Shown: positions 1,019 to 6,069 of the stretch, piece by piece
Layout of the letters: each line of letters opens with the position of its first letter
How positions within the stretch are numbered: position 1 is the first letter of the stretch
Sequence record: MH051915
Strand: one strand, 5' to 3'
DNA length: 64,000 bases
From: Enterobacteria phage vB_EcoM_IME339
The notes under the pieces: generated by a model
The model's database searches: none
Told to the model about the DNA's origin: nothing
The model's input: only the letters and a program-made list of their open reading frames with translations
Translations under genes and position numbers: made by a program

Positions 1019-1612
1019 ATGAACACACTGAAGAAAATTGTTGAGTTTATTCGCACTAAACTTGGTTCTGCTATGGCTAAAAATCTATCTGTCGAAGAAC
1101 AGTATACTGCTGCAGCAGCAAAACTACTTGATAAAATTAAAGATCTAAAAACTGCTTCTGTTAAATCTATTAATGAAGAAAAACGTATTCGTGAACTTAT
1201 TGTCGAAAAGAATCGACAGGCTGAATCAAAAGAGCGTGAAATTCGTAAACTTCTTTCCGAAGGTCAAGATGTAACAATGCACGCTAAACTCGGCTTGCTA
1301 TATCGTCGAACGGCTGAGCAGTTGACTACTAAGGCTGACGGTTATGCTGAAATGCGAATTGAAATCGCTAAGAAAGTAGTTGAGTTAGATGATGCTCGTC
1401 AAGAACTTGCAGTTAAATTGGAATATATCCGTGAAACTCGTGCAGCAAATGCCCTTGGAATTAGTACTGCAGATGATGTAGTTGAAATCGCAGCGCTGAC
1501 TAAGGTTGATATTGAAGATACCCTTGCTCGAGTTGAAACCTTTAACGGTAATATTTCCGGGGTTGAAACTACCTCTGCCGATGTCCAGGAATATATTAAT
1601 TCTCTGAAATAA
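1019..1612 (+). CDS. coiled-coil protein (197 aa), possibly PspA/IM30-like
   Basis: Heptad-rich Lys/Glu sequence; followed by UUCG-hairpin terminator. PspA resemblance is by eye only. Confidence 0.5.
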
Positions 1613-1617
1613 TGATA

Positions 1618-1640
1618 AGGGGCTTCGGCCCCTATTACTT
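1618..1640 (+). terminator. intrinsic terminator-like hairpin (aggggCTTCGgcccct)
   Basis: GC stem with UUCG loop after ORF 1019..1612; weak T-run. Confidence 0.5.
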
Positions 1641-1653
1641 GGAGTAAATAGGA

Positions 1654-2259
1654 ATGAAAATGCAAAGTGATTTCAATTCAATGTTTGAAGAGTTCCAAAG
1701 ACAGGTTGATGTTCCAGACCAATTACTAAATGCTCTTAAACGTATGGCAGAAGGACGTAATTATTATTGGGGGTCTTCATATGAAACTGATGAAAGTCTT
1801 TCTGGATTTTATAAAGGTAAAAAGTCTTTAATACGTCCTGGAATACTTATTAAAAGTATTGAATCAATTCATTCATTGACATGTGATTTTGATGTTGAAT
1901 TTACTGATTTCATTTCTCCTGAATGGACAGTTTGTTATTTAAATGACGATTATGATTATCTTGGCGTTTATAGTTTAAGTGACGCATGGTTTAAACGTAA
2001 TTTACAAAAGTCAAATTTGTTCTATATTGATACTACGGTAAAATTTCAGGGAAAGAAATATTTCTTTACTCTTATAGTTGATTCTGAAACAAAGCATGAA
2101 AATAAACGTATTCTTAGCAAAAAGAATATCTTAACTATTGTTGATGATCTTTTTGATAAATTCGTGGAAAATCCTAATTTTGAAAGCGATTTATTATTAG
2201 AAAAATTTGTTAAGGAATGTAGAGAATATGTCAAAGCCATCACTATACCTTCCAAGTAA
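1654..2259 (+). CDS. hypothetical protein (201 aa) sharing C-terminal junction motif with the next three genes
   Basis: C-terminus ...EKFVKECRE resembles the ...ECRK(I/L)K tails of the following ORFs. Confidence 0.5.
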   Translation: MKMQSDFNSMFEEFQRQVDVPDQLLNALKRMAEGRNYYWGSSYETDESLSGFYKGKKSLIRPGILIKSIESIHSLTCDFDVEFTDFISPEWTVCYLNDDYDYLGVYSLSDAWFKRNLQKSNLFYIDTTVKFQGKKYFFTLIVDSETKHENKRILSKKNILTIVDDLFDKFVENPNFESDLLLEKFVKECREYVKAITIPSK

Positions 2260-2620
2260 ACCTGTGAAGTATGAATTAAAGCGCCAGCTAATTTCTACTG
2301 ATGTATTAATAGGTCCTGTTATACTCATATCATTTGTAATTCTATTGATTATTGGAGGTGTTTTAGATGTTATGACTGATATTGATTCTGGCGAAATACT
2401 TGTGTTAATGCTAATTCTTCCATTAATAGTTCCACTTTTATTAGTACCTGTAAATTGGATAGGATATTGGTATCAAGGAAGACATTATCGTAAACGTGTA
2501 CGTGATTGGAAAGCACAGTGTAAAAAGATTAAAAAGGAACACCAGCTTAAACTTGTTGAGTATGAATTTAATGAAATTATGAAATTTGTTAAGGAATCAC
2601 GATGCAAAAGCCAAAACTAA
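2228..2620 (+). CDS. small membrane protein (about 130 aa, two predicted TM helices), paralog family
   Basis: ORF track 2207..2620; internal ATG at 2228; hydrophobic segments; C-terminal ...FVKESRC. Confidence 0.45.
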   Translation: MSKPSLYLPSKPVKYELKRQLISTDVLIGPVILISFVILLIIGGVLDVMTDIDSGEILVLMLILPLIVPLLLVPVNWIGYWYQGRHYRKRVRDWKAQCKKIKKEHQLKLVEYEFNEIMKFVKESRCKSQN

Positions 2621-2964
2621 ATAAAGTCAAATATTCGTTCCCCGAGGCACTATTAATTCTTGCCGTGTCAGTATTTGCAGCTCTTGCTGGTAGTCTTATT
2701 GGATTGTTAATTGACTGTATTATTTTAAACATCGATGGTTCAGCAATTATAACAGAGGTTTGGAGTGAACTTCGTTTTACTATAGCGATTACATTATTTT
2801 CATTCTTTGGTACCATGCTATATTTTCATTATGATAATTTTAAAATAAATTGGCAAAGAAAAAAGGATTACAAAATACAATTAAAAGAATATAATAGCTA
2901 CATGTCTTATATTGAAAATGAATCAATGAAAGAGTTTGTGAGTGATTGCAGGAAAATCAAATGA
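2602..2964 (+). CDS. small membrane protein (120 aa), paralog family
   Basis: Two hydrophobic helices; C-terminus ...EFVSDCRKIK; stop overlaps next ATG (AAATGA). Confidence 0.5.
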   Translation: MQKPKLNKVKYSFPEALLILAVSVFAALAGSLIGLLIDCIILNIDGSAIITEVWSELRFTIAITLFSFFGTMLYFHYDNFKINWQRKKDYKIQLKEYNSYMSYIENESMKEFVSDCRKIK

Positions 2965-3449
2965 TTTTAAAAACTCGCTGGTATGATTTAGATGACGGGG
3001 ATGATGGCATTTCAGTTGATAGAGTTGACTGGAATGGCTGTTCCGAAGATATGAAAAATTTGCTGATTAGGGAGTTTAGAATGGGATATCAACCAGTTAA
3101 GCCATCTACTGCAACAGATGATAAATTCGTGTGTATTCATAATGGTCGCGCTAAATTAACGAACGCTGATTGGTTCACAGATAAGATTATGATTCTGTGG
3201 TATATTATTAGTTTTCCTGTGACATCATTTGTATTTTGCTTCTTTGGAGAAAGTCCAGTAGGCAGAACGGAAGATTGGATTCTTTTAATTATACTTGTTA
3301 ATATTTTTACAGCAGCAGTACTATCAGGAATATGGTGCGTGTTCATTGAAATGCCATGGCGGTTACGTAGGCAGCAAAAGATTTTTGATGAAAAGAAATA
3401 TACTCAAAATTTAAATAATTTTATCACTGAATGCAGGAAATTAAAATGA
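2961..3449 (+). CDS. small membrane protein (162 aa), paralog family
   Basis: ORF track 2946 (TTG); ATG at 2961; hydrophobic helices; C-terminus ...FITECRKLK overlapping nudE start. Confidence 0.5.
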   Translation: MILKTRWYDLDDGDDGISVDRVDWNGCSEDMKNLLIREFRMGYQPVKPSTATDDKFVCIHNGRAKLTNADWFTDKIMILWYIISFPVTSFVFCFFGESPVGRTEDWILLIILVNIFTAAVLSGIWCVFIEMPWRLRRQQKIFDEKKYTQNLNNFITECRKLK

Positions 3450-3886
3450 AAACATTATCAGCTGGTATTATCTTTATGACAGAAGATAAAGATTTATTTA
3501 TGGGACGAGTTACTGGTTCTCGTAAGCCTGGAATGATGGCACATCGTTGGGATATTCCAAAGGGGCGTGTAGAAAGTTCTGATTTGAATGCACTGGAAGC
3601 TGCAAAAAGAGAATGTTTAGAAGAGACTGGCTTTAGTAATTATAATCCAGACCTTCTAGAAGACCTAGGTGTATTTAAATATTCTAGTAATAAAGACTTA
3701 CAGTTGTTTTATTATACGATTCCAGTAGAGCATGAGATGTTTAGAAATTGCCATTGTGAGTCTTATTTTGAAAATAAAGATGGCGTTATGATTCCAGAGA
3801 TGGATGCTTTTGCTCTTATTCCTCGTACTCAGTGGCAATATGTGATGGCTCCTTCACTTTACCGAATAATGAACAGCCTCTTTTAA
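3446..3886 (+). CDS. nudE: Nudix hydrolase (T4 NudE / e.1-like)
   Basis: Nudix box GRVESSDLNALEAAKRECLEETGF; sits immediately upstream of lysozyme e as in T4. Confidence 0.8.
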   Translation: MKTLSAGIIFMTEDKDLFMGRVTGSRKPGMMAHRWDIPKGRVESSDLNALEAAKRECLEETGFSNYNPDLLEDLGVFKYSSNKDLQLFYYTIPVEHEMFRNCHCESYFENKDGVMIPEMDAFALIPRTQWQYVMAPSLYRIMNSLF

Positions 3887-4417
<531 letters not shown>

Positions 4418-5529: not shown

Positions 5530-6069
5530 ATGAGAACATTTTTAACTGGTCCTTATCTATCCCTGATGAATGCTTTTACACACCATTCTGATGCTAGAGT
5601 AGAAGAAATTTGTAAAAACGATTATATCCCACCATTTGAAGACTTACTCAAACAGTATTGCACACTTCGACTAGATGGTGGACGTCAATCTGGTAAATCA
5701 ACTGCTGTGACTAACTTTGCTGCTAATTGGCTGTATGACGGTGGAACAGTTATTGTTCTTTCTAATACTTCAGCTTACGCTAAAATTTCTGCGGGCCACA
5801 TTAAAAAAGAATTTTCGCGTTATTCTAATGATGATATTCGATTCCGCTTATTTACTGATTCTGTGCGCAGTTTTATTGGCAATAAAGGAAGCAAGTTCAG
5901 GGGTTTATTGCTTTCGCGAATTTTGTATATAATTGATGAGCCTGTTAAAGCTCCCGATATGGATAAAATTTATGATATTCATATTGACACTGTACATTAC
6001 TGTTGCAATAGCAAGTGTTGCATTGGTGGTATTACTCGCCCGCAGTTTTTCGTAATTGGAATGCAATGA
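5530..6069 (+). CDS. small P-loop NTPase (about 180 aa)
   Basis: Walker A GGRQSGKST, Walker B-like ILYIIDEP; ORF track 5482..6069, ATG 5530 chosen. Confidence 0.5.
   Translation: MRTFLTGPYLSLMNAFTHHSDARVEEICKNDYIPPFEDLLKQYCTLRLDGGRQSGKSTAVTNFAANWLYDGGTVIVLSNTSAYAKISAGHIKKEFSRYSNDDIRFRLFTDSVRSFIGNKGSKFRGLLLSRILYIIDEPVKAPDMDKIYDIHIDTVHYCCNSKCCIGGITRPQFFVIGMQ

Follow-up and report, generated by a model that had tools for sequence, protein, structure and literature searches.

A peptide tail shared by e.5, e.4, e.3 and e.2 of a T4-like phage coincides with the ribosome-binding sites of overlapping cistrons

When a row of small phage genes looks repetitive, is it the gene, the encoded peptide or the junction between cistrons that is repeated? 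T4 is the best-studied phage, and roughly half of its genes are without known function. The window analyzed here, a whole stretch of 64,000 nucleotides (nt) from Enterobacteria phage vB_EcoM_IME339 (MH051915), contains the consecutive genes e.5, e.4, e.3 and e.2, followed by nudE and the lysozyme gene e (Table 1). An earlier sequence-only reading had proposed that these four genes, whose products end in a shared tail, reflect iterative duplication of a small membrane-protein gene with its junction intact. The four open reading frames (ORFs) are all present at the starts given there, and nudE and e do come next. We consider that the array consists of diverged membrane paralogs (e.4, e.3 and e.2) plus a soluble protein, e.5, that shares their tail, a reading to which we assign a probability of roughly 0.6.

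The tail has the general form Φ-x-x-[F/W]-[I/V/L]-x-x-C-R, often with a K or R between it and the stop codon, and locates 1–15 residues from the C-terminus in all four proteins. In a six-frame translation of the window, the regular expression F[VIL]x[ED][CS]R matched six times. Four of these matches fall in the C-terminal regions of e.5, e.4, e.3 and e.2, lying 11, 5, 3 and 3 residues before the stop, respectively. Meanwhile, a 12-column hidden Markov model (HMM) of the tail was applied to the six-frame translation of ES21, a complete Tequatrovirus genome of 166,790 bp, and its top four matches were e.2, e.5, e.4 and e.3, with a clear gap to the rest. The earlier observation that four consecutive genes share an ending is borne out by both searches.

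To follow the tail across relatives, we collected 21 related loci through the conserved neighbor e.6 (60–99% identity), together with RB51, T2, RB69, T4 and VR26. The motif is found near the C-terminus of every relative of e.5, e.4, e.3 and e.2 among these loci, and the 16 subfamilies that carry it come from several T4-like lineages, including Tequatrovirus, Mosigvirus and Gaprivervirus. Across 24 e.5 orthologs, only five columns are invariant (M1, N97, F185, C189 and R190), and the F, C and R of the tail make up three of them. The codons behind the motif vary widely. The tail Arg is encoded by AGG (13), AGA (23), CGT (20), CGC (6), CGA (9) or CGG (1), the tail Cys by TGT (36) or TGC (24), and the tail Phe by TTT or TTC, or it is replaced by W. 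In the E5b and E5c lineages, the Shine-Dalgarno (SD) sequence and ATG of the next gene lie 28–49 nt downstream of the motif, which is conserved nonetheless. Since the codons vary synonymously and the motif is kept at this distance from the next start, nucleotide constraint alone cannot explain the tail. The codon comparison indicates that selection acts on the tail peptide, not only on the junction RNA. On the same grounds, the possibility raised against the duplication proposal at the outset, that the resemblance lies in the junction nucleotides only, fails.

Beyond these loci the tail appears rare. Scanning IMG/VR for DNA encoding FIKECRK gave 13 places, among which only the T4-like e.2/e.3 ones looked real, the others being internal or in non-coding frames. 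A mixed e.3/e.4/e.2 profile searched against 1.84 billion representatives returned only eight clusters at E ≤ 1e-3; leaving aside four new ids, the matches that could be identified are T-even-type e.2, e.3 or chimera proteins. This mixed family looks very small. Annotations and searchable papers do not mention the shared tail, the double use of its codons as a ribosome-binding site (RBS) or the family link among e.2, e.3 and e.4, and a literature search on e.2 to e.6 found no functional description. The tail feature is real and specific and, as far as our searches reached, undescribed.

We notice a second, upstream W-x-x-x-C element in three of the five e.4 subfamilies. In e.4 of the window, an internal tail-like element of the form W-x-x-x-C-K-K (WKAQCKK, residues 94–100) is encoded at 2507–2527, and it is also seen in the e.4-type proteins of RB69, VR26 and L022c. 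One possibility is that e.4 combines a hairpin and its own tail with the C-terminal segment of a further paralog.

How do the tail codons relate to the start of the next gene? The sequence-only reading had described one junction string, ga(a/t)tgcaggaaa(a/t)t(a/c)aaATGA, which places the next start codon on the stop. This description is right for e.3/e.2 and e.2/nudE, where the two copies of a 30-nt junction repeat are 80% identical and the start overlaps the stop (ATGA). It does not extend to e.5/e.4 and e.4/e.3. These junctions carry a different repeat, the 16-nt AAATTTGTTAAGGAAT, and the e.4 and e.3 starts lie 32 and 19 nt inside the upstream ORF. The Cys following Arg in e.4 (CGA TGC) is there because it is imposed by the e.3 ATG. 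At all four junctions of the window the cistrons overlap, with the SD inside the upstream ORF.

Overlap by itself is common in this phage. Considering ORFs of at least 50 amino acids (aa), we counted 28 candidate ATGA stop/start overlaps on the plus strand of the window (for example at 6066, 8935, 9399, 9608, 9811 and 9981) versus 5 on the minus strand. Tight cistron overlap is a genome-wide habit, and thus the special feature of the array is the tail, not ATGA. In order to place the SD relative to the tail, we surveyed 80 non-redundant junctions, of which 79 had an assigned start for the next gene and 74 could be scored for an SD match. The SD lies inside the tail codons at 63 of the 74, usually at the two variable motif positions (AAG GAA, AAA GGA or GAG GAA), and in AGG AAA where the tail runs two residues longer, as in Tequatrovirus e.3 and e.2. 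The AGG Arg codon occurs where the SD needs it. Altogether 75 of the 79 assigned junctions overlap: the next start is an ATGA on the stop at 34 and lies inside the upstream ORF at 41, the remaining 4 starts being 2–13 nt past the stop. Judging from this anatomy, the cistrons are probably translationally coupled.

None of the junction RNAs folds into a stable structure when compared with shuffles (z from −0.07 to +1.08), an Rfam scan of the window matched no family, and promoter-like sites are at chance level, with 24 found and 22 expected. A RegA operator was considered and rejected: two junctions match the SELEX consensus AAAAUUGUUAUGUAA with three mismatches, but the window holds 12 such matches where 14 are expected by chance. 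On the other hand, a 20-nt colinear similarity continues past both ATGA junctions, in different reading frames (repeat D8 in register with D2; p ~0.017 taken alone), which hints at a DNA-level footprint.

The proteins themselves fall into two kinds. In e.4, e.3 and e.2 we find two strong hydrophobic helices, an acidic loop of 9–16 residues (0–1 K/R, 3 D/E) and termini rich in K and R. They follow a common layout of basic N-terminus, first transmembrane (TM) helix, acidic loop, second TM helix, basic helix and tail, and are predicted to adopt an N-in/C-in topology that would leave the tail in the cytoplasm. The hydropathy analysis found no hydrophobic helix in e.5. The proposal that three of the four are two-helix membrane proteins is thus confirmed by the topology check.

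The jackhmmer searches merge e.2, e.3 and e.4 with RB69 ORF133c and with further copies, such as the three plus two tandem copies of locus L022, and never merge e.5 with any of them. In HHalign comparisons of the C-terminal columns, E3 and E2 align with 91% probability over 48 columns and E3 and E4 with 73% over 41. The C-terminal similarity among the membrane proteins spans 20–48 columns, and e.5 aligns with any of them over only 10–16 tail columns. Pairwise links through intermediates such as the L022 copies reach E = 1e-6 to 3e-4, and the L022 tandem copies are still similar without their tails (E = 1e-6). From these alignments the body of e.5 is judged unrelated to e.2, e.3 and e.4, and e.5 is not a paralog. 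For e.4, e.3 and e.2, the architecture, the C-terminal segment and the bridging sequences make a common origin the best reading, although it is not proven. The duplication proposed earlier therefore keeps its support for these three genes, from layout, jackhmmer, HHalign and copy number, and loses it for e.5; the similarity of the tail-less bodies is at decoy level, so that duplication of whole genes is deduced from architecture and intermediates.

Natural variants demonstrate that the array grows and shrinks in frame, and the copy number differs among related phages. In T2, RB32 and locus L006, e.2 is missing; e.3 there ends in CRKLK and runs straight into nudE. The last two residues of this e.3 (LK) are those of e.2, revealing a hybrid junction from a crossover within TGCAGGAAA, and in this natural deletion the two junction repeats are joined exactly. 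We counted 497 phage records with e.3 and 446 with e.2 at 60% identity or more. Extra tandem copies occur in other genera (L021–L025 and RB69), with the three plus two of L022, two e.2-like genes each in L021, L023 and L024, and ORF133c in RB69. The e.2 gene is intact (162 aa) in the window and most relatives. In the reference T4 genome (L004 4234–4542) it is truncated to 102 aa without a stop-on-start junction to nudE, and the T4T annotation lists e.2a and e.2b.

Array genes are also fused in frame. Phage vB_EcoM-UFV05 (L043 2501–2821) encodes a 106-aa e.4::e.2 chimera, joined at a 6-nt microhomology (TCCTGT) inside the first TM helix. The two parts meet in register, in line with a common layout of e.4 and e.2. 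Its array is cut to e.5, the chimera and nudE, and the chimera protein is present on five contigs. In Shigella phage A2, gp132 (L044 361–1098) is a 245-aa e.5::e.4 fusion, in which the first ~120 residues of e.5 are followed by e.4 from residue 6. The resulting layout is e.2-like, with a soluble N-terminal domain, two TM helices and a tail.

An insertion of ~3 kb directly behind the e.3 tail brings other genes into the locus of RB69 and VR26. We observed that this insertion contains a different tandem array of small soluble proteins, RB69 ORF139c–136c (L003 4231–5026) and VR26 gp136–gp132 (L005 4691–5959). Each of them ends in G-W-V-S-S-S-x-x-C and the stop, then TAAGGAA and the next ATG; no ORF with this ending exists in the window. 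In addition, nudE of the T2 record LC348380 (L002 3866–4837) reads through into lysozyme e as one ORF of 323 aa, which may be a genuine NudE-lysozyme fusion or else an artefact of sequencing or annotation.

Table 1. The e.6–e region in window coordinates, with the genes, tails and junction repeats described in the text
Feature	Position	Strand	Description
e.6	1019–1612		ORF; 5′ neighbor of e.5
GC-rich UUCG hairpin	1618–1633	+	Core GGGGCTTCGGCCCC; lies after e.6 and immediately ahead of the e.5 SD; bounds the gap-free block on its 5′ side
e.5	1654–2259	+	201-aa soluble protein; PHROG 2607; 32-nt overlap with e.4
16-nt exact direct repeat AAATTTGTTAAGGAAT	2203–2218 (e.5/e.4 junction); 2582–2597 (e.4/e.3 junction)	+	16/16 identical
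e.5 tail codons	2206–2223	+	TTT GTT AAG GAA TGT AGA (F-V-K-E-C-R); AAGGAA at 2212–2217 is the SD for the e.4 ATG at 2228
e.4	2228–2620	+	130 aa; TM helices aa 26–47 and 57–79; predicted N-in/C-in; PHROG 2604; 19-nt overlap with e.3
e.4 tail codons	2585–2602	+	TTT GTT AAG GAA TCA CGA (FVKESR); AAGGAA at 2591–2596 is the SD for the e.3 ATG at 2602
e.3	2602–2964	+	120 aa; TM helices aa 16–41 and 58–76; predicted N-in/C-in; PHROG 2330; C-terminus FVSDCRKIK, then stop
e.3 tail and junction	2935–2964	+	TTTGTGAGTGATTGCAGGAAAATCAAATGA; SD AGGAA at 2950–2954 in the Arg-Lys codons; e.2 ATG at 2961 overlaps the e.3 TGA
e.2	2961–3449	+	162 aa; 75-aa N-terminal domain; TM helices aa 76–96 and 106–128; PHROG 2203; C-terminus FITECRKLK, then stop
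e.2 tail and junction	3420–3449	+	TTTATCACTGAATGCAGGAAATTAAAATGA; SD AGGAA at 3435–3439; nudE ATG at 3446 overlaps the e.2 TGA
nudE (e.1)	3446–3886	+	Nudix hydrolase; Pfam NUDIX E = 3e-13; last cistron of the gap-free e.5-to-nudE block
Lysozyme e	3923–4417		ORF after nudE; followed by denV

The window derives from a Tequatrovirus, and the region 1600–3500 shows 92–97% nucleotide identity with ~500 T4-like phage genomes. The gene order e.6-e.5-e.4-e.3-e.2-nudE-e matches that of RB51, T4 and numerous further records. No intergenic base separates the genes from e.5 to nudE, and an early-type promoter lies upstream of e.6 at 949–977. The T4 proteins e.5, e.4, e.3 and e.2 (UniProt Y06P, Y06O, Y06N and Y06M) are orthologs with 72–98% identity, in the same order beside nudE and e, and are annotated in databases as conserved hypothetical or predicted membrane proteins. 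PHROG profiles match at full length with E-values of 4e-108 (e.5, 2607), 6e-70 (e.4, 2604), 3e-57 (e.3, 2330) and 2e-79 (e.2, 2203). Precomputed Pfam assignments of near-identical proteins give the separate families Phage_T4_Y06P (e.5), Phage_T4_Y06O (e.4) and Phage_T4_Y06M (e.2). Our Pfam, NCBIfam and PADLOC scans of e.5, e.4, e.3, e.2 and e.6 yielded nothing above cut-off.

Some annotations at this locus deserve comment. The most conserved gene of the neighborhood is e.6, with 60–99% identity across genera. PDB sequence searches with e.5 and e.6 gave no match and Pfam does not recognize e.6; the hunch that e.6 is PspA-like found no support in these searches and was dropped. The nudE start is annotated inconsistently, T4 using an upstream ATG (window 3431, 151 aa, no SD; L004 4704) and RB51 the one on the e.2 stop (146 aa). 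An SD, AGGAA, stands 6 nt upstream of the ATG at 3446, and none precedes that at 3431; by sequence, the start at 3446 fits better. In several public records e.3 or e.4 goes by the name ‘sulfurtransferase’, and one record calls e.3 a ‘DNA primase’. Neither name is backed by an NCBIfam or Pfam model, and both look like propagated mis-annotations.

Taking these data together, we propose the following explanation, to which as a whole we again give a probability of about 60%. The e.5-e.4-e.3-e.2-nudE block is transcribed early and contains no intergenic space. The e.4, e.3 and e.2 proteins would form a highly diverged family of small inner-membrane hairpins (N-in/C-in), joined by the unrelated, soluble e.5, and all four would display in the cytoplasm the same short C-terminal helical motif, on whose peptide sequence selection acts. 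The SD of the next cistron is spelled, in the membrane genes, by the two variable motif codons (K-E, K-G or E-E) or, in tails longer by two residues, by the Arg-Lys codons, and the ATG of this cistron overlaps the stop or sits a few nucleotides away. The tail thereby doubles as a protein motif and an RBS, with coupling probable. Recombination at the junctions or within equivalent helices may then add, remove and fuse copies in frame with the operon kept, because the DNA is similar at each junction and the proteins are built alike. We speculate that the tail acts as a common docking or assembly determinant, through which the proteins would gather at the inner membrane on a single partner or on one another, and that the biological role is an accessory one which laboratory E. 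coli does not call upon. In T4, e.2 to e.6 and nudE all belong to the early RNA class, and their proteins have been given timing classes in proteomics (PMC9697503, supplement).

Several points weigh against this explanation. With the tail cut off, the bodies of e.2, e.3 and e.4 align in HHalign with a probability of 0.3–10%, and tail-less phmmer searches among them do no better than reversed decoys either (best decoy E = 5e-4), so that common descent of the bodies is not statistically proven. PHROGs and Pfam place the four proteins in four separate families, and the AlphaFold models are poor (pLDDT 54–55), which makes structure prediction uninformative. The e.4 family has S, I, V or M at the Cys position of the motif; this Cys is therefore not universally required. 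The amphipathicity of the tail is moderate, with a mean moment of 0.55 versus 0.35 for shuffled sequences, 12% of which reach it. Translational coupling is what we infer from junction anatomy only. No partner, complex or phenotype is known for e.5, e.4, e.3 or e.2, and when e.2 to e.6 were knocked down by CRISPRi-ART the score was ‘Not Fit’, meaning no fitness effect (PMC11879866, supplement). In the laboratory, e.5 to e.2 are dispensable.

Common descent could also be confined to the last 10–20 residues. The tail-coding DNA would then be a recombination linker, a coding analogue of the promoter-early stem-loop (PeSL) cassettes through which T4-type phages shuffle modules (PMC2839356, PMC4122927), and unrelated genes entering the array would gain the tail from it. 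Such capture would account for the tail on the unrelated body of e.5 and for tail-less similarity among e.2, e.3 and e.4 that does not rise above decoys. The T2-type crossover inside TGCAGGAAA, which moves LK from e.2 to e.3, agrees with it as well, and the 20-nt similarity beyond both ATGA junctions, running in different frames, looks DNA-level and not protein-level (p ~0.017 alone). However, no tail is present on the genes that RB69 (ORF139c–134c) and VR26 (gp136–gp132) carry immediately behind the e.3 tail, and within each family the tail is ancient and orthologously stable. The membrane proteins have in common a full architecture and the 20–48 C-terminal columns, and the tail-less similarity of the L022 tandem copies (E = 1e-6) means that true duplication occurs here. 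We regard tail capture as a doubtful explanation.

Still less probable is that the junction serves purely as an RNA or translation element, an RBS, coupling or operator sequence such as that of RegA, with the peptide as a by-product. It is true that the SD of the next gene lies inside the tail codons at most junctions, that the 16-nt and 30-nt repeats coincide with junctions, and that the AAG-GAA and AGG-AAA codon choices suit an SD. An SD, however, does not require F/W, I/V, C or R, and the codon data, with wide synonymous variation at F, C and R, largely refute this idea. The e.5 lineages that keep the motif 28–49 nt ahead of the next SD and ATG speak against it too, as do the lack of stable structure at the junctions (z −0.07 to +1.08), the absence of an Rfam match and the chance-level count for the RegA consensus (12 against 14). 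That short C-terminal sequences of AT-rich small genes merely look alike by chance can be set aside as refuted. The motif is short, with six defined positions, and the genome has a biased composition; yet six regular-expression matches stand against ~0.5 expected from a rough amino-acid-frequency estimate, four of them at consecutive gene ends, and the motif is exclusive to the array within the whole ES21 genome and conserved across genera.

What follows from a peptide-selected tail on e.5, e.4, e.3 and e.2? Four adjacent early orphan genes are linked by one peptide motif and a common design of expression and recombination, and the tail provides a concrete experimental handle on four orphan proteins. 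The locus also illustrates how small accessory-gene arrays in hyperplastic parts of phage genomes can gain, lose and fuse units in frame with expression kept. Practical impact would be limited unless a function emerges, for example in host takeover, exclusion or anti-defence. A bolder version, which we think unlikely, casts the tail as a portable docking tag that plugs three membrane hairpins and one soluble protein into one inner-membrane partner or complex, making the operon a self-contained cassette system. If so, effector bodies could be swapped, fused or deleted with expression and targeting kept, since the codons of the tag carry the next RBS and serve as an in-frame crossover site, and the array would be a coding-sequence counterpart of PeSL-mediated shuffling.

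Compared with known systems, the array is a variation on known themes, namely tandem small-membrane-protein genes, coupling by overlap and junction-mediated shuffling, and not a new kind of system. Like PeSLs, its junctions are short repeats at gene boundaries in hyperplastic regions, end in an SD and a start codon, and act as crossover points at which small accessory genes are gained and lost, as in the hybrid junction of the T2-type e.2 deletion and the ~3 kb insertion after the e.3 tail in RB69 and VR26. In contrast, PeSLs are intergenic and carry a sigma-70 early promoter and a stem-loop, whereas the e.5–nudE junctions are coding, encode a conserved peptide, and show neither promoters above chance (24 versus 22 expected) nor RNA structure (z ≥ −0.07). 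Coupled overlapping cistrons (ATGA or TGATG), common in T4 and bacteria, likewise combine a stop/start overlap with an SD inside the upstream ORF; here the SD-bearing codons are also a conserved protein motif, at four successive junctions. MinD and FtsA carry C-terminal amphipathic helices for membrane targeting or docking. The phage tail would resemble them in being a short helix at the C-terminus, one face aromatic/aliphatic and the other K/R. It is shorter and less hydrophobic, however, and its almost invariant Cys-Arg pair would not be needed for generic membrane binding; in three of its four carriers it belongs to a protein already anchored in the membrane. Finally, databases list T4 e.5, e.4, e.3 and e.2 as four unrelated families, whereas our analysis ties them together by the tail, by the double use of its codons as an RBS and by the probable family link among e.2, e.3 and e.4.

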